Of a stretch of DNA of 64,000 bases, positions 7,195 to 30,787 are shown piece after piece. The notes below the pieces were generated by a model. The model was not told where the DNA came from, did no database searches, and was given only the letters and a program-made list of their open reading frames with translations. Source of the DNA: Candidatus Omnitrophota bacterium. Its GTDB lineage: Bacteria; Omnitrophota; Gorgyraeia; Zapsychrales; JBDRMG01. The stretch is taken from the NCBI GenBank assembly GCA_043812495.1, contig JBDRMG010000018.1, forward strand, positions 7,651 to 71,650, given 5' to 3'. Both the position numbers and the translations under genes were made by a program. Every line of letters starts with the position of its first letter. Within the stretch, counting starts at the first letter, position 1.

Positions 7195-8751
<1,557 letters not shown>

Positions 8752-8754
8752 TTA

Positions 8755-9606
8755 TTATCTCTTCGTCATCATTCTCGCTGTAAAGACTTCGCGCATACTT
8801 TTGTCAATATCGCCTTTTTTGGCCTTGCCAAAAGACATCTGAACACCTTTTTTTTGCTTCTGCATTTTCTGCAAGCTCGATTCTAATTGCTGAGACTGGG
8901 CCGCCGCTTCCGAGATGGCCGTATCATGCAGCATTTCGTAAATACGGCAGACAATCCACATATCGGCCAAGTAACCGATAATATCAACGGGATCAGACTC
9001 TTCAATCACCTTCTCGATGGTCTCCACAAAATCGGCTTGTTTGGTTAAGAGTTCCTCACAAGGAAGCAATTTGACAACGCGAGGTTTTTGTATCATAAAG
9101 TTCTTTGACCAGGGATAGACAACATTCGCTCGGCCGATTTTTCCGGTCATGATTTGTTCGATCAAATGATCCTTGATGTGGATGGCCGTCTCATAGAGCC
9201 CCGTTTCTTCAATATCTTCAAAAACCTTCATCTCGACACCCGGCCTTGCCATCTTAACGGCTCCTTTGCGCCCACAGGCAATCAAGAAAGAGTCTTTGTA
9301 TTTGCTTTGTTCGCTTAAGGCCGCACGGATAACGCGGCTATTCAGATCACCCATAAAGCCCGCTTCCGACGTGATCACCACGATTCCTGTAGCCGGATTG
9401 TCATTGGACACAAGCGGGTGCCTGACCCTTGAAAGACTGATCATGCGGAAAAATTCGACAAAAGACTCCCCAAAACGGGCAAAACGATCTTTTCGGTTGG
9501 CCAGCGTATGAAATTTATTGTCCGCAACGTCTTTAAGAACCTGGATGATTTGAAGCAACTCGATAATATCATCCAGATCGCCTTTAATTTTATTGGCTTT
9601 TCCCAT
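8755..9606 (-). CDS. atpG: F-type ATPase gamma subunit
   Basis: 283 aa. ...VVITSEAGFMGDLN... (the ITSDRGLCG equivalent). C-terminal helix ...REVFTARMM. Sits between the b/delta fusion and beta. Confidence 0.75.
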   Translation of the reverse strand: MGKANKIKGDLDDIIELLQIIQVLKDVADNKFHTLANRKDRFARFGESFVEFFRMISLSRVRHPLVSNDNPATGIVVITSEAGFMGDLNSRVIRAALSEQSKYKDSFLIACGRKGAVKMARPGVEMKVFEDIEETGLYETAIHIKDHLIEQIMTGKIGRANVVYPWSKNFMIQKPRVVKLLPCEELLTKQADFVETIEKVIEESDPVDIIGYLADMWIVCRIYEMLHDTAISEAAAQSQQLESSLQKMQKQKKGVQMSFGKAKKGDIDKSMREVFTARMMTKR

Positions 9607-9621
9607 ACAGCAATCCTTTGA

Positions 9622-10365
9622 TCAAGCGCCTTCGGCTCCTTCTTTTAAACTGACAGAAGTTTCCGTAATCAGATTCTGCAAACTTGCGTCCAAGGCCAAA
9701 CTGCCAAACCGTAAGACCACTCCTCCGATCACCTGAGGATCGACAGTCGTTTTGATATCGATGGTGCGCCCTAATTTCTCTTTAATAATATCGGAAATCT
9801 TTTTCTTGATATCTTCGGGCAAAGTACTTGCAACAATGATTTCCGCTGTTTCGATGTCTTTGCCGATTTGTGTCATGTCCACTTTTGTAAGACTCGCGAT
9901 AAACTCATCGGACAGTTGTTGATTGAGCAGGCCTCTGGCTTTCTCGCTTAAGACCTTCGAAAGTAAATCACCGGCATAGGTAATCATTTTGAGCTCAACT
10001 TCTTTTTTGACCTCAGAGCGCATCTGATCTTTTGTTCTCTGAGCCTTGGCGATGATCTCCTCGCTTTCGAACCTGGCTTTCTTGACAATTTCATCCCGTT
10101 CGGCCTTGGCTTTTTTATCAGCTTTTTCCAGCATCTTTTTGGTCAGTTCATCGGCCTCTTTCTTTCTTTTCTCAAGTTCCTCATTGGCGGCCTTGATCTT
10201 CTGGTCCAATTCTGTTTGCTTGGCCCTGGCTTCTTCCGTTTCGCGGTTAAGCCGTTTGACCGCTCCTTCTGTTTGCGAAACAAAAACATTTCGTAAAGTA
10301 AAAATAATGACACCCACCGCGACGACTTGCAGGAGCATAAATTTAAAGATCCACATCCAGGTCAT
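9622..10365 (-). CDS. F-type ATPase peripheral-stalk fusion: subunit b (TM + coiled coil) fused to delta/OSCP C-terminal domain only
   Basis: N-terminal TM MTWMWIFKFMLLQVVAVGVIIF. About 120 aa of charged coiled coil. C-terminus ...LGRTIDIKTTVDPQVIGGVVLRFGSLALDASLQNLI matches the delta C-terminal domain (E. coli ...[30 protein letters not shown]). The delta N-terminal helical bundle is absent. Confidence 0.75.
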   Translation of the reverse strand: MTWMWIFKFMLLQVVAVGVIIFTLRNVFVSQTEGAVKRLNRETEEARAKQTELDQKIKAANEELEKRKKEADELTKKMLEKADKKAKAERDEIVKKARFESEEIIAKAQRTKDQMRSEVKKEVELKMITYAGDLLSKVLSEKARGLLNQQLSDEFIASLTKVDMTQIGKDIETAEIIVASTLPEDIKKKISDIIKEKLGRTIDIKTTVDPQVIGGVVLRFGSLALDASLQNLITETSVSLKEGAEGA

Positions 10366-10468
10366 AGTTTGTTGCCTCCCAAATTTAGAATAATCATAAT
10401 AACGTTCATGGCAGAAATTATTTCCATTGTAATCATTTCTTAATCATTGCGTTTCGGCGAGAATATGA

Positions 10469-10713
10469 TCACTCGCCAAAACTCGACATCACATGGTAAA
10501 ACGTCAATAACATAGTGACTGAAACACCCTCCACCGCGATGAGCTGAAGCAGAATGCTCATCTGAATAGCCGGTGTTTTACTCGGAAAAAGAGAGATAGC
10601 TGCTTAATCATGCGATAACCGATCCAGGCAATAGACACGCAAGGGACCAGAATCATGAAGGCGATGATGGCAACAAGGACTAATCCTGTTGTTAAGGTCT
10701 CGCTAACAGCCAT
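10469..10713 (-). pseudogene. Second F-type ATPase c-subunit copy interrupted by a 1-nt frameshift in a T5 run
   Basis: Frame 1: MAVSETLTTGLVLVAIIAFMILVPCVSIAWIGYRMIKQLS... stops after 51 codons. Shifting by one nt at the T5 homopolymer (~10586-10596) continues as ...PSKTPAIQMSILLQLIAVEGVSVTMLLTFYHVMSSFGE. Helix 1, helix 2 and the conserved carboxylate E all align to the intact c subunit at 10733..10954. Confidence 0.6.
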
Positions 10714-10732
10714 AGGAAATACCTTCTATAAA

Positions 10733-10954
10733 TTACCTTCCGAACAATTGAAAGATGATTAAAATAGCCATAATAGATATGGCCTCGACAAAAATAAGCA
10801 AAACCACCATCCCCATGAAGATCTTAGAGGCCGCGGATGGATTACGTCCTAAAGCTTTAATAACGGAATAACCCAAGACAGCAATCACAACAGACGGTCC
10901 CATGACCGCAATAAACATAATCGAAATAATGATAAAGGATTCTGCCCAACGCAT
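10733..10954 (-). CDS. atpE: F-type ATPase c subunit (proteolipid)
   Basis: 73 aa. Two TM helices and a polar loop GRNPSAASK. Conserved acidic residue in helix 2 (LLIFVEAISIMAIL). Confidence 0.8.
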   Translation of the reverse strand: MRWAESFIIISIMFIAVMGPSVVIAVLGYSVIKALGRNPSAASKIFMGMVVLLIFVEAISIMAILIIFQLFGR

Positions 10955-10990
10955 ATTTTATTGAATTACACTCCTGTCCATGCCAACCAC

Positions 10991-11317
10991 TTAACCCCCA
11001 TCACCCTCGGGTTTCTCCTGAGCAAAAACAATATCTTCTTCTTTGGTTTTCTTAACCTTCTCCTGCTCTTCCTGTTCGACCAGGACAATGCAATCATTCG
11101 CGAAGAATCGGATGACGCCGCCTCTAATCGGAACCGCTTCTTTCCAATCAATAATGATGCTGCCTTTCTGCAAGATACCCAAAACAGGATAGTGATAGGG
11201 CAGCAATTCATATTCGCCCGTATCTCCCGACAAGAAGACACTATGCACTTCGTTCTCGTAAATGAGCGCATCGGGTGTCATAATCGTTAATTTGAATGTT
11301 CCTTTGTATCGAGCCAT
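10991..11317 (-). CDS. atpC: F-type ATPase epsilon subunit (N-terminal beta-sandwich; short acidic C-terminus)
   Basis: MARYKGTFKLTIMTPDALIYENEVHSVFLSGDTGEYELLPYHYPVLGILQKGSII...GGVIRFFANDCIVLVE aligns with the epsilon N-domain (L.VV.P....F.G.V..V...G..GE.GI.P.H.P.L..L..G). The C-terminal helical hairpin is replaced by an E/K-rich tail. Confidence 0.7.
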   Translation of the reverse strand: MARYKGTFKLTIMTPDALIYENEVHSVFLSGDTGEYELLPYHYPVLGILQKGSIIIDWKEAVPIRGGVIRFFANDCIVLVEQEEQEKVKKTKEEDIVFAQEKPEGDGG

Positions 11318-11662
11318 GTTAAGGAAATATTATAATTGCATTTGCTTGATCCCCGCCCGCCATTGATTCAGTGGCGGGCGGGGTCAAACCCAGCGGGGAA
11401 TCCCCGCCTTTATTTAAGGCGGGGAGGAGAGCAAATACCAGCAACAAAGTTGCTGGTCAAGCTCTGCTTGAAAAACAATTTATCAAGTACCACGGCTGTG
11501 GGTATCTATTTCGGTCATGCACTTATGTTTCCGTCAATTCGATAAAATCGAATTGACGAGACCTCGCTAAATTTTGAGAAAATGTGCGGGCACTATCGTT
11601 CCATAAGCGCGGGCCTCATTGATTAGTAAGAGTTCTTGTTGAGTAGCCTTTCTTTGCAATCG
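11318..11662. repeat. Palindromic repeat cluster inside the atp gene array (family A)
   Basis: 345-bp non-coding gap between atpA and atpC. Contains AATATTATAATTGCATTTGCTTGATCC, hairpin ccccgcccgccattgattcagtggcgggcgggg, cggggaatccccg, and the perfect palindrome cgtcaattcgat-aaa-atcgaattgacg (also at 28243-28269). Confidence 0.7.
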
Positions 11663-13204
11663 TCAGCTCCCTTTCGCCGTTGTCGCCTTATCCAGCGCAT
11701 CCTCCCCCACGCCAACTTCCTCGGCTTCCTCTTCTTCATCCTTGGGTCTTTTAGCTTCCGCTTCTTTAATGTAGTCTTTAATCACGCTCTCGAAACCTTT
11801 GGTGATTTCATCGTCTATTTTTTTTCTTTCGCGCAGGATCTTCAATAGATCCGGATTCTTTTTCTGACAAAAGGGCGCAATTTCATTCTGAAAGGCCTTG
11901 ACCTCGTCAATCGTCAATTGCAACAGAAGTTTCTTAGTGTAGGCATAAAGAACAAAAGCCAGTGCCTCCAGGGAAACCGGGCTATCTTTGTCTTGCTTGA
12001 TGATTTCAGTTAAAATTTCGCCTGTCTTCATCTGTTGCTGGGCTTCTTCGGACTGTCCGGATGATTTTAATTTAGAAACCCGCAATAATTCCCTGAATTG
12101 GATATAATCCAAACGCAAAGAACCGGTGAATTTCTTGATGACAGGCCATTGGACTTTACTTCCGACGCGAGAAACGGAAAGACCGATATCCACGGCGGGC
12201 TTCTGCCCTTCTCCGAAAAGCGGCGTGCTTAACATGATTTGGCCATCGGTCATCGAAATAAGATTCGAGGAAATATATCCCGTCAAATCTCCTTCTAGAA
12301 TTTCGACAATAGGCAAAAATGTCATCGAACCTCCTCCATGGTCTTGGTCCAAGAAGGCGGCTCGCTCAATCATCTTCGAGTGCAAGTAAAAAATATCTCC
12401 CGGATAAGAGTCGCGGCCGGGCGGACGTCCCAATAATAGAGAAATTTCACGATAACACCAGGCATGTTTAGTAAAATCGTCAAAGCCGACAATCACATCT
12501 TTTCCCTGATTCATAAAATGCTCGCCGATAGAACAGGCCACGTAGGGAGCCAAGTATTGTTGTCCGGGCGGACAGGAAGCAGTGGCCGAAACAATGATCG
12601 TGTACCTAAAGCACTCGTGATCTTGGAATAGCTGTACAACCTTAGCTAAGGATGATCTTGATTTTCCGATGCAGCAATAGATACAAACAACATTTTTTCC
12701 CTTTTGATTCAGAATAGTATCTGTAATAATTGTTGTTTTCCCCGTCATTTTGTCGCCAAGAATGAGCTCTCTTTGACCATAACCAATAGGGATCATGGTA
12801 TCCAATACCTTAATCCCAGTCTCTAAAGTTTTACACAAAGGAACTCGGGCCAAAATAGGAGGGGCATTAATAAAAATAGGCGCCATTTTATCATGCTCAA
12901 GAGGCCCTAAGCCGTCAAGCGACTCCCCCAAAGGATTGACAATCCGCCCCAATAATTTGTCGCCAACGGGAACAAGAAACGGCTCCAGAGAAGCGACCGC
13001 CTTATCACCAGTCTTGATCTTCTCTGTCTCCTTAACGATCAGAACCTGGGCCTCGGTCTCGTCAAAACCAATGATGGTTCCTTCTGTCCCATATCCAAAT
13101 TTGATGAGCTGTCCGCTGATGCAGTGTTTAAAACCCGTCACCACAACGATACATCCGCGGATACACCGGACCCGTCCAATCTCTGTATAACGTAAATCTG
13201 CCAT
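11663..13204 (-). CDS. atpA: F-type ATPase alpha subunit (N-terminally truncated, Cys-rich variant)
   Basis: Aligns to canonical alpha from the beta-barrel onward. Walker A GDKMTGKTTIITDTILNQ. ...ATASCPPGQQYLAPYVACSIGEHF..., ...LLLGRPPGRDSYPGDIFYLHSKMIERAA, ...SVSRVGS. The ~30 N-terminal residues that normally bind delta are missing. RBS GGAGC 8 nt upstream of the ATG. Confidence 0.85.
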   Translation of the reverse strand: MADLRYTEIGRVRCIRGCIVVVTGFKHCISGQLIKFGYGTEGTIIGFDETEAQVLIVKETEKIKTGDKAVASLEPFLVPVGDKLLGRIVNPLGESLDGLGPLEHDKMAPIFINAPPILARVPLCKTLETGIKVLDTMIPIGYGQRELILGDKMTGKTTIITDTILNQKGKNVVCIYCCIGKSRSSLAKVVQLFQDHECFRYTIIVSATASCPPGQQYLAPYVACSIGEHFMNQGKDVIVGFDDFTKHAWCYREISLLLGRPPGRDSYPGDIFYLHSKMIERAAFLDQDHGGGSMTFLPIVEILEGDLTGYISSNLISMTDGQIMLSTPLFGEGQKPAVDIGLSVSRVGSKVQWPVIKKFTGSLRLDYIQFRELLRVSKLKSSGQSEEAQQQMKTGEILTEIIKQDKDSPVSLEALAFVLYAYTKKLLLQLTIDEVKAFQNEIAPFCQKKNPDLLKILRERKKIDDEITKGFESVIKDYIKEAEAKRPKDEEEEAEEVGVGEDALDKATTAKGS

Positions 13205-25388: not shown

Positions 25389-26378
25389 TTATTTCACTTT
25401 TTTGGAAAGAAAATTCAAAAGACAGGAAGGAATCCCGGCTAAAAAACCGGATGTTCTTGCCCATGCGCGAAGACCCATGACCCAAGACCAGAAAAATGCC
25501 TCTTTCGTCTTTTTTGTCATATCTAATGCATAGAAAATTTCCATGATACTCAAAAAAAGCATGCTACTTGCAAGGATTCTGAAGGCCCATGGCCTCAGCT
25601 GAGGGATTAAGCACAAGATCACACTCAATAAAATCAATAAAATCAGCGGCGGTTCGATCATATCTTTCCAGAATGTGTAGTCATCCCCGAGGCTCATCCG
25701 GGGGTGGTCTCTATACATCATGACACGCCAGAATCCATGGCGGAATTGTTCTTTTAAATACTTTCTTAGTTCGGTTGTGTGTTGGTGGGCAACTAAAATT
25801 TCTTGCGCAAAGTAAATTTTGTAACCCTTGTTTAGAATTTTGTAGCTTAAATCATTATCCTCTCCGCTTGCATGGCGGTATTGTTCATTAAAACCGCCAA
25901 CCTCCTCAAACACATTTCTTCTAACGCAAAAGTTATAGCTACCAAAGGATTTAGGATAAAGAGGCATTAATTTGATGTGACGATACATTATTTCTTTTTG
26001 TATGCACCGAGCCAGTAAACTGTCTTTATTGTACAATGTATAGCTTCCGGCAACAACTCCGATGGCAGGGTCCTTAAAATGCTTAAGAGCGCGCTGAATC
26101 CAATCCTTCTGAGGCATGCAATCCGCATCTGTAAAGAATATCCATTCCCCTTTTGATTCTTTGAATCCCCGATTTCGCGCACAGGCAGGTCCTTGATTTT
26201 CTTGTCGAATATAAAGAATGCCAGGAGCAAATTTCAGAATATTTTGCGTATTATCCGTCGAGCCATCATCTACCACAATCAATTCATGCTCTTGTGGATT
26301 GATCTGACTTTTGACGGCTTCAATTGTCTTTTCAATCGTTTTTTCACCGTTATAAACGGGAATAATGATGCTGATCAT
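25389..26378 (-). CDS. Family 2 glycosyltransferase with C-terminal membrane region
   Basis: MISIIIPVYNGEKTIEKTIEAVKSQ...ELIVVDDGSTDNT...FTDADC. C-terminal hydrophobic segments. Confidence 0.8.
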   Translation of the reverse strand: MISIIIPVYNGEKTIEKTIEAVKSQINPQEHELIVVDDGSTDNTQNILKFAPGILYIRQENQGPACARNRGFKESKGEWIFFTDADCMPQKDWIQRALKHFKDPAIGVVAGSYTLYNKDSLLARCIQKEIMYRHIKLMPLYPKSFGSYNFCVRRNVFEEVGGFNEQYRHASGEDNDLSYKILNKGYKIYFAQEILVAHQHTTELRKYLKEQFRHGFWRVMMYRDHPRMSLGDDYTFWKDMIEPPLILLILLSVILCLIPQLRPWAFRILASSMLFLSIMEIFYALDMTKKTKEAFFWSWVMGLRAWARTSGFLAGIPSCLLNFLSKKVK

Positions 26379-26386
26379 TTATTTTC

Positions 26387-27064
26387 CTAATCGTTGATTA
26401 TCTTTTTCTTTTTCGCAATAACATAAAGCAGCATGCCAAATGATTGACCGCAAATGCGGTCGGGGGAGATTGCAAAAGGAATGGTATTGATGCCACCTTT
26501 TTGAATAACATCTAATTCATTAATTTCATGAACAGAGATCAAAGTCCTTGTCGTAAAAGGAGTTTCGTAAATCCCTGGCATAAGAAAGGGACGCAACAGC
26601 TGCCAGGGTGACCAGCGATTCGGAACAAAAGTTGCTAAGATGCCGTCATCGCCCAGCAAACCTGCGAGATTTCTAAGAATCCTAATTTGATGACTTTGAT
26701 CAAAATGTTCCAGGAGTCCATCGGAAAAGATCAGGGAAAACCTTTCAGGCAGACACGACGCCAATTCGTCTTTTGTGAGATCGCATTGGATGGTCTTTGC
26801 GCGGCCATCGGTCTTCTCGCTTGTCATCTTGAGAGCCTGCTCGGAATAATCGCAGGCTGTTGTGTTCATGCCCTGATCGCAGAAATATTTCGCAAAAAAG
26901 CCGCTTCCGCAGCCGGCATCGAGCGCATTCTTTCCTTTTTGCGCAAAGGGCTCAACGACTTTTATGATCCTTCTTTTGGACCAGCTAGCGTTTTCGCTTG
27001 TCTTTGATTCTTCACTGCTCCAGAATTGATTCCAAGAATTTTTTGTTGTCTGCTTTTGTGTCAT
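26387..27064 (-). CDS. Class I SAM-dependent methyltransferase
   Basis: Motif I ALDAGCGSGFFAKYF. Post-I acidic residue CDYSE. Motif II LIFSDGLLEHF. Confidence 0.75.
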   Translation of the reverse strand: MTQKQTTKNSWNQFWSSEESKTSENASWSKRRIIKVVEPFAQKGKNALDAGCGSGFFAKYFCDQGMNTTACDYSEQALKMTSEKTDGRAKTIQCDLTKDELASCLPERFSLIFSDGLLEHFDQSHQIRILRNLAGLLGDDGILATFVPNRWSPWQLLRPFLMPGIYETPFTTRTLISVHEINELDVIQKGGINTIPFAISPDRICGQSFGMLLYVIAKKKKIIND

Positions 27065-27414
27065 ACCATCTTCTTTTCCTTTAAATCATTAATTTCTTTC
27101 TCAAGCAATGCCATTTTCTGCGCCATAATTTCATTGCGTCGTTCCTGCTGATAAAGGAATGTTGTTGATAGCAAACTCAAGAAAATAAAAAAGCTTAGCA
27201 ACGAGAAGAAAATAAAATTGCTCGGTAACTCAAAACCAAGAAACGTGGCCATCCGGAATAACGCTTGATCAAAGATGACAAAGAACAAACCCGCAACGAA
27301 AAGGATCATCCATCCAAAAGCGTATTTGAATGTCAGTTTTTCCTGACGGATTAATTCGATCAAGAATGCAAGAAATCCGAGCAATATGCCCGCGCTGATT
27401 ATTTTGACATGCAT
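27061..27414 (-). CDS. Small 3-4 TM membrane protein (DUF2304-like partner of polyprenyl-phosphate glycosyltransferases)
   Basis: 117 aa, hydrophobic, ELIRQEKLTFKYAFGW motif. C-terminal coiled tail. Sits directly downstream of the DPM1-like GT2, as such proteins typically do. Confidence 0.45.
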   Translation of the reverse strand: MHVKIISAGILLGFLAFLIELIRQEKLTFKYAFGWMILFVAGLFFVIFDQALFRMATFLGFELPSNFIFFSLLSFFIFLSLLSTTFLYQQERRNEIMAQKMALLEKEINDLKEKKMV

Positions 27415-27418
27415 CGTG

Positions 27419-28129
27419 CTATCCTTTCTTCTTTAAGGTATTCATCAGAATCGCAAATGTCACTTTTATCATATAGTAGAGCGTGCTCAAATAACGAATT
27501 GACGAGAGTCCTTGCTGACGCTTGCGCATTTCAACAGGGACTTCCTGAAATCGAACGCCTGCTTTTTTCGCCATCATGATTTCTTCGGGTTCCGGAAAAT
27601 CCGTCGGATAGTCATCGGCAAACAGGCGAATCATCTTTTGATTATAAGCTCGAAATCCCGATGTGGAATCTGTTACGGCCAAGTGCGTTAACCCGCTGAT
27701 GAGCCATGCAAAGAAATTGATTCCTATGCGCCGGACAAAGGAGGATTGATACCCCAAAAACGGCGGGATAAAACGGCTTCCGACCGTAAGATCGGCCCGG
27801 TCATTCAGCACAGGTTCGGCGAGTGCTGCCAGATAGCGGACATCATGCTGGCCGTCGGCATCCACGCGCAGAACAAAATCATATTTTTCCTTAAGGGCGT
27901 ATTTAAATCCTGTTTGCACAGCGCCGCCGATGCCCACATTAAAAGGAAGGCGCACAACCAAGGCCCCGCTGTCTTTAGCTCTTTGCCTCGTCTCATCCTG
28001 TGAGCCGTCGTCAATCACAAGGAAATCATACGGGAGATGAAGATCCTGTATTTCGGTGAGAATCTGCCTGATATTCTTTTCTTCATTGAAGGCGGGAATG
28101 ATGATTAAAACTCTTTTGTTTTGTATCAT
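27419..28129 (-). CDS. GT2 polyprenyl-phosphate sugar transferase (DPM1/GtrB-like)
   Basis: VLIIIPAFNEEKNI...FLVIDDGSQDETRQ...LRVDADGQHD. About 236 aa, soluble, with C-terminal amphipathic end. Confidence 0.8.
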   Translation of the reverse strand: MIQNKRVLIIIPAFNEEKNIRQILTEIQDLHLPYDFLVIDDGSQDETRQRAKDSGALVVRLPFNVGIGGAVQTGFKYALKEKYDFVLRVDADGQHDVRYLAALAEPVLNDRADLTVGSRFIPPFLGYQSSFVRRIGINFFAWLISGLTHLAVTDSTSGFRAYNQKMIRLFADDYPTDFPEPEEIMMAKKAGVRFQEVPVEMRKRQQGLSSIRYLSTLYYMIKVTFAILMNTLKKKG

Positions 28130-28380
28130 GATTTAAATAAGATGTTATGATTACATTCGTTTTCATCCCCGCCATTGATTTTAGCGGCGAGCCTCTCGCT
28201 CATTATCATTCGCTCGAGGTAAATTCCGGCATTTGAGTTACGTTCCGTCAATTCGATAAAATCGAATTGACGAGACCTCGCGAAAATATTGAGAAAAAGG
28301 CGGGCGTTTCACTCCGTAACTCAAGCCGTCATTTATCGGCCATATGACTTATGTCGCTTCGCTGACCATAAGTCATGGCC
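28130..28380. repeat. REP/MITE-like element (family A) including perfect 27-bp palindrome
   Basis: Shares gtt(t)ccgtcaattcgataaaatcgaattgacgagacctcgc with 11520-11566. Ends with catatgacttatgtcgcttcgctgaccataagtcatggcctcatgg, the cataagtcatggcctcat module seen at 7035-7194 and 54515-54675. Confidence 0.7.
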
Positions 28381-28767
28381 TCATGGATATTTAATCACGC
28401 CAGCTTCTTGAAGGCGGGATATCAAACTGTGATCAATAATTTGTTTGCCCATGTTGATAATGACTCCCCCTTTAATGGATTTATCGATACGGATCTCAAG
28501 CGGTATGTTCCTTCCGCATTTCTTGAGTAAAGAATCCGTGATTTTGGCTTTGTCTTGGGGCGCAAGATCGCTGTACGCAATGATTTCGACTTTCGACAGC
28601 TGAAGGTCGAGTGCGCTTGGATAAATGGTGAGAACCTTCTGAATGGCGCTTTCCATCAACTGTTTGTGCAAGATTTTGACAAGAACAAAGACGATGATCG
28701 AAATGACAGCGATCTGTCCGCAGAATACAATCACAAATACTTTTCCCATTAATAAACCTGTTTCCAT
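28381..28767 (-). CDS. Membrane-anchored protein consisting of one TM helix plus an ATP-synthase delta/OSCP C-terminal-like domain
   Basis: 128 aa. TM VFVIVFCGQIAVISIIVFVLV. Residues ~55-125, SKVEIIAYSDLAPQDKAKITDSLLKKCGRNIPLEIRIDKSIKGGVIINMGKQIIDHSLISRLQE, align to E. coli delta [65 protein letters not shown]. Start overlaps the stop of the S41 peptidase. Confidence 0.55.
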   Translation of the reverse strand: METGLLMGKVFVIVFCGQIAVISIIVFVLVKILHKQLMESAIQKVLTIYPSALDLQLSKVEIIAYSDLAPQDKAKITDSLLKKCGRNIPLEIRIDKSIKGGVIINMGKQIIDHSLISRLQEAGVIKYP

Positions 28768-29963
28768 TAAGGCTTCCTTTTAAGCGGATCGAGCTCTTTG
28801 AGATACGTAGCGGCAAATCGAATGAGATCGATCTCTTTGTTGTCGATATATTCATTGGGGACCAGGCCGCTAAAATCAAAGACCTCCCCATCGGGATGAT
28901 GACCCCGGGCCGTGACCAAGAGCACCATCGAATCGTCATCAAAATGAAACATGCTTTTGAGGAACACTTGGCCGGCGGTATTTTTTCCTATGAGAACCGC
29001 CCGCTTTCTTTTCTGCAAAACGCCCGCAAACAGCTCGGAAGCGCTTCCGCTTTCTTGATTGACGAGAATCGCGATCGGCCCCTCATAGTGATAACGCGTA
29101 GGGATCTTGGGAACCGACAGCATGGCTTTGGGCTGTCCTTTTTTCTGAAAATAAGCGAATTCTTCATTGGGCGGCAAGAAAAACGAGGAAATTTCACACG
29201 CCGCTAAAGGCGGACCTCCGGGATTTCCGCGCAGATCTAAAATCAAACCCGAATCTCCTTGTTTTTCAATATAAGATAAGTAATTGAACATATCTTCGCT
29301 TGTCTTTCGGTTGAATGTGCGGATTTCCAGGCAATATATTCCCGGAATATCGACGGGAACTAGAAATACGGATTGCCGGAAGTATTCCTTGCTTGTCACG
29401 CTGATTTTCCTCTTTTTCTTTGTCTCGGCATCAATGTAGGCGAGGCGGACCATGGTATCTTCAAGCGGCATGAGCAATTCAGCGATTTCTTTTTCGGTCA
29501 TAGTCAACACATCGACACTGTTGATTTGAGTGATGATATCCTTAACCCTTAAGCCTTTTTTGTAGGCATCGGAACGCGGCTCCAGGCGCACGATGAAGTA
29601 TCCCTCATCGGTGAACCTGCCTTCGATGCCTAAATTAATCTTTTTCCCCAGAACCTTTTCTTCAAATTTCTTGGCGTCTTTCGGAGGGAAAAAGGCTGAG
29701 AAGCGATCGTCCGGATTTTTGAGATAATCAATCATATAGGCCGCGCTTCGCCATTTGATATAGTTGCTTGATTTTCCTTTACTATTCAAATTATTATATA
29801 TTTCCTTATTGAACCACTGGATGAAGTTGTCAAAATTCTCTCTTGAAACGGGAAAAAAGTAATTTTCATCCACAACTTTATAGACTTCATTAAAGAAAGC
29901 TACATATTCGTCGTAAACGGCTTGCGTCCGGTCTTCTATGGCTCCAAGAGGCGCTGCAACCAT
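28767..29963 (-). CDS. S41 family C-terminal processing (tail-specific) peptidase
   Basis: Start set to MVAAPLGAIEDRT..., preceded by GGGAGG 8 nt upstream. PDZ region (…GLRVKDIITQINSVDVLTMTEKE…). Catalytic block GLILDLRGNPGGPPLAACEISSFFL. The upstream 144 codons of the long ORF lie in palindromic repeat DNA and are rejected. Confidence 0.8.
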   Translation of the reverse strand: MVAAPLGAIEDRTQAVYDEYVAFFNEVYKVVDENYFFPVSRENFDNFIQWFNKEIYNNLNSKGKSSNYIKWRSAAYMIDYLKNPDDRFSAFFPPKDAKKFEEKVLGKKINLGIEGRFTDEGYFIVRLEPRSDAYKKGLRVKDIITQINSVDVLTMTEKEIAELLMPLEDTMVRLAYIDAETKKKRKISVTSKEYFRQSVFLVPVDIPGIYCLEIRTFNRKTSEDMFNYLSYIEKQGDSGLILDLRGNPGGPPLAACEISSFFLPPNEEFAYFQKKGQPKAMLSVPKIPTRYHYEGPIAILVNQESGSASELFAGVLQKRKRAVLIGKNTAGQVFLKSMFHFDDDSMVLLVTARGHHPDGEVFDFSGLVPNEYIDNKEIDLIRFAATYLKELDPLKRKP

Positions 29964-30420
29964 TAATGAACCTCCCCGTAGCAAGCTACGGAGTCTCTTA
30001 AAGGAAGTCCTGGATGGTTCATTCTTCGAAGCCGAATACCCAACCCTACTACGCTCAAAAACTTCACTTCGTTGCGTGTTTGAGTCCGCCTTCGTCCAAT
30101 ACTTTTCGTGTTGGACTTCGGCGGGATCTCGGCGAAGCCAAATGCGAAAGCAATTTGGCGGAGACGGACTTAGTAGGGTTCTACTTCCGCCTTCATCCTC
30201 CTTCGCCAAATACCTTTCGTATTTGGCTTCGGAGGATAGTCCTTCGGAGCGAAAGGCAAAAGCACTTTCGCGAAGTAGGACATCCCCGCAGCAAGCTGCG
30301 GGGTATTCGGCGAAGTAGAATAAAGAAAGGCTTAACCCAAATAGTTTAAGCCTTGCGGATGCATCCCTGAAATATCTTAAAATCTTTTTTCCCATAGAGA
30401 TATTATAACATAGGATAATT
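29964..30420. repeat. Palindromic repeat cluster (family B: CTTCG-hairpin units)
   Basis: Three copies of a ~33-bp hairpin unit (cttcgtccaatacttttcgtgttggacttcggcgg / cttcgccaaatacctttcgtatttggcttcggagg / cggcgaagccaaatgcgaaagcaatttggcggag). Also ccccgcagcaagctgcgggg and ggcgaagtagaa, the latter shared with 36620-36756. Confidence 0.65.
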
Positions 30421-30613: not shown

Positions 30614-30728
30614 CCTAAATTTATAAAACTTTAGGCCCTGTTTTTGGCTATTTTTATGGAATAAACGGTTTTAACGTGCTGCTTGCGAAGTGAATGCGAA
30701 GACTAGAAATGTTCTCAGATCAAAGACA

Positions 30729-30769
30729 AAGCCCCCGCCCGCCAATGCTTCAATGGCGGGCGGGGGCTT
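30729..30769 (-). terminator. GC-rich stem-loop, probable (bidirectional) intrinsic terminator after the EF-hand gene
   Basis: aagcccccgcccgcca-atgcttca-atggcgggcgggggctt, a 16-bp stem. T-run on the plus side (tttctgctgttttttta). U-rich ttgtctttg on the minus side, 20 nt after the stop at 30788. Confidence 0.6.
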
Positions 30770-30787
30770 TAAGTTTCTGCTGTTTTT

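Follow-up and report, generated by a model that had tools for sequence, protein, structure and literature searches.

In rotary ATPases, the C-terminal domain (CTD) of the delta (OSCP) subunit acts as a clamp on a stator partner that is anchored in the membrane, holding it by its helical end. Delta itself, e.g., E. coli AtpH (PF00213, TIGR01145), binds alpha through an N-terminal helical bundle and never carries a transmembrane (TM) helix, while subunit b/b' (PF00430) has a single N-terminal TM segment followed by a long (>100 residue) helical stalk to the top of F1. Mycobacterial b-delta keeps a full delta, including the N-domain, and Omnitrophota possess b/delta fusions of 240-247 aa with a coiled coil of ~110 residues. 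FliH/YscL and the V/A-type subunit E, in which a long N-terminal helix precedes a small alpha/beta domain, have no TM helix; they are encoded with their alpha/beta-type ATPases, which they tether to another structure. Finally, the mycoplasma Type 2/3 “F1-like X0” ATPases are F-like enzymes without a normal Fo that work with surface machinery, and the antibody-cleaving MIB-MIP protease system depends on Type 3 (PMC3369863, PMC12994834). The Omnitrophota alpha subunit was grouped with this mycoplasma type in a survey that recorded the F-like ATPase for only around half of the species of Velamenicoccia, and for fewer species outside that group (PMC10066038). The mycoplasma clusters, however, contain no recognisable b or delta homologue, whereas the Omnitrophota cluster keeps c and b/delta.

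Here, we compare with these systems the product of a small gene, X, in the window, i.e., the whole stretch of 64,000 nucleotides of Omnitrophota DNA that was analysed (Table 1). The original prediction had described X as a stand-alone protein made of a TM helix and a delta C-domain, with residues ~55-125 collinear with the E. coli delta C-domain. Both points were borne out by Pfam, by phmmer against the PDB and by AF2/Foldseek. The Pfam OSCP profile (PF00213) matched X at 49.6 bits (E 6.3e-13), above its gathering cut-off of 22.3 bits, with residues 29-121 on profile positions 72-167 of 172. The phmmer matches in the PDB were all delta/OSCP or b-delta chains, with E values of 1.2e-8 for Paracoccus delta and 2.5e-8 for E. 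coli delta, the latter reproducing the predicted alignment. An AF2 model based on a 60-sequence alignment (mean pLDDT 95.2) consisted of a single helix (residues 2-47), most of it TM, followed by beta-alpha-beta-beta-beta-alpha. When this model was compared with the PDB by Foldseek, delta/OSCP C-domains ranked first; over 65 columns, X fitted E. coli delta 6oqr_W with an rmsd of 1.4 Å and 37% identity. The linker helix and C-terminal domain are homologous to those of delta, and X keeps the conserved positions (GG and D-x-S…RL). Given the high Pfam, PDB and fold matches, this similarity is not a low-complexity patch. The top Foldseek matches included the mycobacterial b-delta chains 7jg5_d and 9vkp_d, a more distant likeness in which, unlike in X, the N-domain is present. 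Weak matches were also obtained with 5b0o_E (FliH, E 1.8e-2) and 9b8p_K/I; with FliH/YscL and subunit E, X shares the general plan only, and no sequence-level match to them was detected.

Table 1. Gene X, its neighbours and its long paralogue in the window.
Feature	Position	Strand	Remarks
b/delta-CTD fusion, long paralogue of X	9622..10365	-	247 aa; in F-like ATPase cluster 7195-13204
Second GT2	25389-26378	-	later gene, same co-directional block
Methyltransferase	26387-27064	-	later gene, same co-directional block
DUF2304 small membrane protein (GacJ-like)	27061..27414	-	charged C-terminal helix
GT2 glycosyltransferase (GacI-like)	27419..28129	-	invariant downstream neighbour of X
Gene X (TM + delta-CTD protein)	28381..28767	-	128 aa, or 122 aa from the alternative start Met7 (28749)
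Delta/OSCP C-terminal alpha/beta domain of X	28402..28605	-	residues 55-122; conserved GG (100-101), D112, S114, R118, L119
Juxtamembrane helix of X	28627..28677	-	residues 31-47; homologous to delta linker helix (OSCP profile from position 72)
Subunit-b-type TM helix of X	28678..28746	-	about residues 8-30; Gln18 (28714-28716), motif Q-x10-L-[KR][KR]
S41 C-terminal-processing-type peptidase + PDZ	28767..29963	-	part conserved with orthologues, from Met145
5' extension of S41 ORF	29964..30395	-	signal-peptide-like start (Met1 at 30395), then insert
Terminator-like hairpin after upstream EF-hand gene	30728..30770	-	marks start of S41-X transcription unit here

No delta N-domain was found in X, the PF00213 match beginning only at profile position 72. 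There was likewise no PF00430 (subunit b) match, even at E<=10, and no coiled coil in the AF2 model, in which the helix stops at residue 47. Without the N-terminal bundle of delta and without the coiled coil of b, X is not a delta subunit, nor is it a peripheral stalk. Unlike delta/OSCP, it lacks the alpha-binding part, has a TM helix, falls below the equivalog cut-offs and is encoded outside any atp operon; like b/b', it has a single N-terminal TM segment in a predicted N-out/C-in orientation, but not the long stalk. That X is a bitopic inner-membrane protein, in which a b-type TM helix runs directly into the delta linker helix and CTD, is well supported.

The same domain had been predicted in the b/delta fusion, and hhalign agreed, placing residues 29-122 of the X family on residues 144-237 of the fusions (E 1.1e-19). 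The N-terminal regions (47 residues in the X family, 45 in the fusions) also aligned in a profile-profile comparison, at a probability of 92.5% (E 6.6e-8) and with the TM Gln in register. Thus, X has the same end modules as the fusions (that of the window, P0057 and P0090), in the same order and register. It lacks their coiled coil, however: the fusion model comprised helix 3-138, helix 141-161 and then the CTD, and its long helix measures 136 residues against about 46 in X. With a helix of only about 46 residues X is unable to reach the F1 crown, and the suggestion of a second minimal stalk protein (b and b') is not borne out. We conclude, with good support, that X and the stator protein (b/delta-CTD) of the F-like, pilus-linked ATPase of Omnitrophota are paralogues, X being the one without a stalk. 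Together, the two offer the same end modules with and without a stalk in one genome, a natural experiment in stator evolution.

The neighbourhoods of the two genes also differ, the fusion gene but not X being located between the c and gamma genes. The distance of 18.0 kb from X to the atp genes was as originally given, but these do not encode a normal ATP synthase. The cluster (alpha-epsilon-c-b/delta-gamma-beta, with alpha at 11663-13204 and beta carrying an N-terminal extension of roughly 57 aa) lacks subunit a, and the genes are embedded in a type IV pilus/T2SS-like cluster (PMC10066038).

It is also well supported that X defines a conserved family, known so far only from Omnitrophota-type contigs. 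With X alone as query, a word-indexed search returned only X, and a 60-sequence profile returned 11 proteins. A 12-sequence query led to true X relatives at 1 of 5 loci in a genome scan and 1 of 15 in a metagenome scan, the others being ordinary delta subunits. An exhaustive search of representative proteins gave 243 matches at E<=1e-3, 160 of which underlie the family counts reported here. Amongst these 160, 119 were 100-140 aa long, and 111 of the 119 had an N-terminal TM helix. Other architectures among the matches were delta subunits with two or three C-domains in tandem and fragments truncated at the N-terminus; none of the matches was a Rosetta-stone fusion joining the X domain to GT2, DUF2304 or S41. 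A literature search found no described family combining a TM helix with the OSCP C-domain, and no mycoplasma counterpart of X was found.

Four positions (Q18, L29, L37 and G101) were invariant in the family alignment. The TM Gln (Gln18 of X) was present in each of 60 family members and each of 12 b/delta fusions, and the motif Q-x10-L-[KR] in 94 of the 119 short proteins and 11 of the 12 fusions. Lys and Arg were more numerous after the TM helix than before it in 108 of 111 members (2.9 vs 0.1). By the positive-inside rule, the CTD is therefore predicted to be cytoplasmic (N-out/C-in), and the 17-residue juxtamembrane helix would, as estimated from its length, hold it ~2-3 nm from the membrane. 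A PilN/PilO/GspM-like alignment protein was also considered as the identity of X and was rejected, given the opposite predicted topology and the clear delta homology.

As originally predicted, X adjoins an S41 protease gene rather than ATPase genes, and the pair is conserved in relatives. At all 13 independent loci, X was situated between S41 and GT2 within a core of S41 – X – GT2 – DUF2304, at X identities down to 26%, and at none was it beside atp genes. Neighbours encoding EF-hand, methyltransferase and ExeA-like proteins come and go between loci. The downstream GT2/DUF2304 pair had gone unmentioned in the original prediction. The X-GT2 junction usually measures -5 to +7 nt (loci L001, L027, L028, L030, L038, L039, L040), and the coupling of X to this pair is no looser than that to S41. 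In the window, the X-GT2 spacing is 251 nt, and X overlaps S41. Over the loci, the S41-X spacing ranged from -20 to +122 nt, the two genes overlapping or lying no more than 15 nt apart in the window, L001, L012, L027, L028, L039 and L040, and being separated by 84-122 nt in L006, L008, L032 and L037. Coupling to S41 by overlap is thus not general in the family; in the window, the predicted 1-nt overlap (TAATG) is present, but it depends on Met1. The N-termini of the family line up not with Met1 but with the in-frame Met7 (28749), a start that leaves a gap of 17 nt to S41, similar to the 15 nt of the closest relative, L001. X is the fastest-evolving gene of the block (26-48% identity, compared with 54-70% for S41 and 56-60% for GT2). 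Synteny between these genomes extends over about 25 kb around X and takes in unrelated glycine-cleavage genes (GcvP 68-70% identical), so that the adjacency of X is in part a matter of shared ancestry.

From these features we infer a binding partner and a functional consequence for X. Our favoured reading, tentative and held at somewhat less than even confidence, is that the S41/GT2/DUF2304 envelope operon has taken over the delta clamp for docking close to the membrane. Re-used near the membrane, the clamp would serve as a docking or scaffold module of the S41 – X – GT2 – DUF2304 core, in which the GacI-like GT2 would be a polyprenyl-phosphate sugar synthase and the GacJ-like DUF2304 protein its activator. 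The cytoplasmic CTD of X would bind a partner at the cytoplasmic face; the best candidate is the GT2/DUF2304 complex, in which the C-terminal helix of DUF2304 is charged and cytoplasmic. The Gln-bearing TM helix could pack against the TM segment of DUF2304, the S41 signal anchor or the long b/delta protein. Such a role is favoured by the invariant core at 13/13 loci, the tight X-GT2 junctions and the conservation of the X fold and family. It is weakened by the ~25-kb synteny of unrelated genes, by the 251-nt distance to GT2 in the window, where X overlaps S41 instead, and by the lack of X-domain fusions to GT2, DUF2304 or S41 among the matches. Moreover, the homology of X points to an ATPase stator, and the long paralogue lies in the same co-directional supercluster. 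To our knowledge, GacI/GacJ pairs elsewhere work without an X-like protein. Of the two original alternatives, an OSCP-C fold probably recruited to a different membrane complex fits the evidence best. If the clamp does serve a non-ATPase complex, the delta C-domain would be a portable protein-docking module.

The main rival, which we consider rather unlikely, is that X serves the pilus-linked F-like ATPase as a short additional stator or anchor. Its TM helix might pair via the Gln with that of the long b/delta protein to give a b/b'-like heterodimer lacking one leg, or its membrane-proximal CTD might dock part of the F1-like head or rotor; in both versions X would substitute for the missing subunit a as the membrane anchor point. 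This is attractive because both modules of X have homologues, in the same register, in the stator protein of the ATPase itself, and because an F-like ATPase without subunit a has a stator without its usual membrane partner. In the window, X and the ATPase are on the same strand of one ~55-kb secretin/pilus/ATPase supercluster, and contigs from the X side and the ATPase side break inside the same repetitive giant gene between them. The presence of FliH-like tethers among the Foldseek matches also fits. However, X was absent from the ATPase cluster in L034, L035 and the window, being encoded 18 kb off in a tight operon with S41/GT2/DUF2304, and its helix is too short for the crown. In L039, the genes past the secretin/TPR genes differ, with no ATPase within 4.8 kb. 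In addition, the X family is large, yet only about half of Velamenicoccia species have the ATPase (PMC10066038). Were X to serve this enzyme, it would provide a handle on how a subunit-a-less rotary motor is anchored, which bears on the “symbiotic” ATPases of Omnitrophota and mycoplasmas. X may be the first case of a delta/OSCP clamp outside a rotary ATPase, although we rate this at a little under an even chance. It would be either an envelope-operon docking module or a stalk-less leg tying a subunit-a-less F-like motor to the secretin/pilus of these ultra-small, host-dependent bacteria.

Less probable still is that X is a dedicated partner of S41 (a membrane anchor, regulator or substrate), kept at a fixed ratio by translational coupling, the view of the operon stressed in the original prediction. 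S41 is immediately upstream of X at 13/13 loci, with the short junctions listed above. Nevertheless, signal peptides or lipoboxes mark the S41 orthologues as exported, which would place the soluble part of S41 and the predicted cytoplasmic CTD of X on opposite sides of the membrane, with only about four X residues in the periplasm. The gaps of up to 84-122 nt at four loci (L006, L008, L032, L037) and the dependence of the window overlap on Met1 rather than Met7 also speak against this possibility, as does the disruption of the S41 5' end by an insert while X is intact.

It is very improbable that X is a functionless, decaying remnant of a duplicated b/delta gene: the rapid divergence of X would fit this, but the reading frame is unbroken, the 119 relatives of 100-140 aa keep a length close to 120 aa, both modules hold invariant residues, the AF2 model reached a pLDDT of 95 and the operon position is fixed across all loci. 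Equally improbable is that X belongs to a chemiosmotic F1Fo ATP synthase, whether as a true delta subunit or as a second b' stalk: despite the Pfam OSCP score and a product name of “F0F1 ATP synthase subunit delta” at NCBI, X has neither the alpha-binding N-domain (profile positions 1-71) nor a coiled coil, lies in an atp operon at 0/13 loci, and scored under the cut-off of all 13 NCBIfam delta equivalog models (e.g., TIGR01145, 43.5 vs 57.5; NF004402, 44.2 vs 115), while the sole F-type genes in the window are without subunit a. This product name inflates F-ATPase calls in Omnitrophota metabolic reconstructions, which treating the X family as separate corrects.

The S41 ORF (PF03572, E 3.5e-33) is open up to 30395, across a palindromic, strongly structured insert of ~330 nt that is missing from the S41 orthologues. 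No further copies of the insert were found in the window or in the relatives' loci, and no Rfam matches in the region. A start at 29963 (Met145) is plausible, with a GGAGG motif 8 nt upstream.

The TM helix and ATP-synthase delta (OSCP) C-terminal domain originally predicted for the product of the X gene (hereafter, the small protein) were borne out by profile, sequence and structure searches. The Pfam profile PF00213 (delta/OSCP) matched residues 29-121 (E 6.3e-13; 49.6 bits, gathering score 22.3) over profile positions 72-167 of 172 i.e., the linker helix and C-terminal domain only, and the NCBIfam delta equivalogs all matched this part, all below their cut-offs. By phmmer against PDB sequences, only delta/OSCP and b-delta chains were recovered, with the same collinear alignment to E. 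coli delta as had been proposed previously. An AF2 model generated from 60 family members (mean pLDDT 95.2) comprised a single helix (residues 2-47) followed by beta-alpha-beta-beta-beta-alpha. Delta/OSCP C-domains were the top Foldseek matches in the PDB, and E. coli 6oqr_W superposed at an rmsd of 1.4 Å over 65 columns. Given these Pfam, phmmer, AF2 and Foldseek results, the protein carries a real delta C-domain and not a low-complexity artefact.

When 1.84 billion representatives were searched exhaustively with HMMER, 243 matched at E<=1e-3, and the best 150 of these were mostly 113-131 aa long and aligned end to end. Amongst 160 analysed proteins from these matches, 119 were 100-140 aa in length, and 111 of the 119 had an N-terminal TM helix. 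In a 60-sequence alignment, Gln18 (within the TM helix), Leu29, Leu37 and Gly101 were invariant, with Gly100, Ser114, Arg118 and Leu119 near-invariant. Judging by source names and contig labels, the family probably belongs to Omnitrophota (the names include Ca. Aceula meridiana and 'Candidatus Omnitrophota bacterium'), with one source MAG bearing a Planctomycetales label. A literature search for a TM + delta-C-domain family found no description. Seven proteins of the representative library (P0036, P0038, P0066, P0085, P0103, P0115, P0142) are full-length deltas of 272-412 aa with 2-3 tandem C-terminal domains, and three shorter proteins (P0084, P0091, P0118; 151-251 aa) have two copies apiece.

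We compared the small-protein family with the window's 247-aa b/delta fusion and its relatives. In profile-profile alignments, family residues 29-122 matched fusion residues 144-237 (E 1.1e-19), and an N-terminal region of 47 residues in the family matched one of 45 residues in the fusions (probability 92.5%, E 6.6e-8), with the Gln and the subsequent L-[KR]-[KR] membrane exit in register. A Q-x10-hydrophobic-[KRNHQ] motif was present in 94/119 short proteins and 11/12 fusions, as against 3/18 ordinary deltas. The fusion was modelled as two successive helices (3-138 and 141-161) ahead of the delta C-domain, with no delta N-domain. The alignment of both modules and the shared motif argue that the small protein is the fusion without its ~110-residue coiled coil. 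Only ~17 helical residues extend beyond the membrane, placing the top of an F1-like head out of reach; the suggestion of a second stalk protein (b and b') is therefore ruled out in the usual sense of a peripheral stalk.

With regard to topology, N-terminal flanks in the family average 4 residues and 0.1 K/R, and the 15 residues past the TM helix contain 2.9 K/R, a bias followed by 108/111 members. The C-domain is hence predicted by the positive-inside rule to be cytoplasmic, as in subunit b; the charged C-terminal helix of the window's DUF2304 protein would likewise be cytoplasmic. S41 orthologues possess signal peptides or lipobox-like N-termini, so that their catalytic domains would lie on the opposite side of the membrane. 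That the small protein is a delta C-domain tethered to the membrane and facing the cytoplasm, paralogous to the stator protein of the pilus-linked F-like ATPase but stalk-less, seems secure.

Features of the window discussed in the text
Feature	Position	Strand	Description
Supercluster	155-31210	-	co-directional: EF-hand/dockerin-like protein, S41, X, GT2, DUF2304, MT, GT2, ExeA-like AAA_22, T2SSC-like, secretin, TPR; three paralogous 190-aa secreted proteins, 1324-aa 'GINW' repeat protein, 455-aa protein; F-like ATPase, PilB-PilZ, PilC, on to T2SSK
F-like ATPase cluster	7195-13204	-	alpha-epsilon-c-(51-aa ORF)-b/delta-CTD-gamma-beta, without subunit a; order repeated in relatives' loci L034, L035
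X gene	28381..28767	-	encodes 128 aa
X–GT2 spacer	28130-28380		251 nt
S41 ORF	28767-30395	-	open up to 30395, with a signal-peptide-like start there
Insert	29964-30345	-	palindromic, very strongly structured, ~330 nt; 5' part of S41 ORF, before conserved domain

The pairing with S41 noted earlier was conserved amongst relatives: the order S41 – X – GT2 – DUF2304 was found in 13/13 independent loci (the window, L001, L006, L008/L011, L012, L027, L028, L030, L032, L037, L038, L039 and L040), in which identity to the window's small protein fell from 48% to ~26%. The EF-hand gene was absent from L030, L039 and L040, the methyltransferase from L028, L039 and L040, and the ExeA-like ATPase from L039 and L040; in L037, TPR genes split the gcvP pair. 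The S41-to-X gaps were -20, -4, -1, 2, 3, 9, 15, 30, 84, 84, 88, 101 and 122 nt, and the X-to-GT2 gaps were usually -5 to +7 nt (27, 84, 251 and 348 nt in four loci). From these junctions, X is coupled to GT2 at least as tightly as to S41. Since ~25 kb around X is syntenic, glycine-cleavage genes included, with GcvP 68-70% identical among loci, the adjacency partly reflects shared ancestry. The window's X–GT2 spacer, nearly nil in most relatives, contains a 14-bp perfect hairpin (GGCCATGACTTATG…CATAAGTCATATGGCC) immediately 3' of the stop codon and a second inverted repeat (TCGTCAATTCGAT…ATCGAATTGACGG).

The GT2 + DUF2304 pair has the arrangement of GacI/GacJ, of which GacI produces GlcNAc-P-undecaprenol and GacJ (DUF2304) binds and stimulates GacI (bioRxiv 10.1101/180810). 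We tentatively suggest, with rather less than even confidence, that the delta clamp was recruited to the four-gene envelope core to serve as a docking module. The GT2/DUF2304 complex would be its most accessible partner, and the Gln-bearing TM helix would pack on the TM helix of a partner protein.

The main rival, which we consider somewhat less likely, is that the small protein belongs to the F-like ATPase, a motor without subunit a whose genes lie 15-21 kb away, and either anchors it in the membrane or acts as a short leg of its stator. The ATPase genes are flanked on one side by a giant repeat protein and a 455-aa bitopic protein and on the other by PilB (MshEN-T2SSE-PilZ), PilC and T2SSK-like genes, matching the non-respiratory 'symbiotic' F-type ATPase reported beside type IV pilus clusters in Omnitrophota (Seymour et al., PMC10066038). 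Both modules of the small protein are homologous to the ATPase stator protein, and X lies in the same supercluster; however, X is never inside the ATPase cluster, the enzyme is reported from only part of the phylum (PMC10066038), and L039 continues differently past the secretin/TPR genes. The Omnitrophota enzyme is usually compared with the F1-like X0 ATPases of mycoplasmas, which have no b or delta homologue; these set a precedent in which an F-like ATPase works for a surface protease system (PMC12994834). In the Omnitrophota cluster (window, L034 and L035), alpha begins at the beta-barrel without the N-terminal helix, beta has an N-terminal extension of ~57 aa, and the conserved bitopic protein preceding alpha (419-455 aa) has no family assignment. 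The relatives' assemblies consistently end within the giant repeat gene.

It is improbable that the small protein is a dedicated partner of the S41 protease, a reading that agrees with their constant pairing but sits poorly with their predicted placement on opposite sides of the membrane. An identical public record, from a Candidatus Omnitrophota MAG at NCBI, is named 'F0F1 ATP synthase subunit delta'; the protein is unlikely to be a true delta subunit, or a dead remnant, and correcting this annotation for X-type proteins is the immediate practical use of these findings.

The proposed translational coupling of S41 and X held in part: the window has a 1-nt TAATG overlap, but family N-termini align with in-frame Met7 (28749), a start that gives a 17-nt gap (15 nt in the closest relative). 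The conserved S41 domain starts at Met145 (29963), with GGAGG upstream. The preceding insert (RNA fold z-score -8.6) has TIR-like arms (30018-30041 and 30301-30324) and two CGCAGCTTGCTGCG-type hairpins, and leaves the frame open. It was absent from S41 orthologues, and neither the window nor the loci contained a second copy. A MITE-like insertion and a structured leader are both possible identities for the insert, which may deprive this genome's S41 of a normal signal peptide. Canonical S41 peptidases have a T-x-G-K-G catalytic-lysine motif. At this site, the S41 subgroup (window 28767-29963 and the L001-L040 orthologues), a putative peptidase, has 'NTAGQVFLKS'; K occupies the catalytic-lysine position in L001 only, and a conserved Lys lies four residues downstream.
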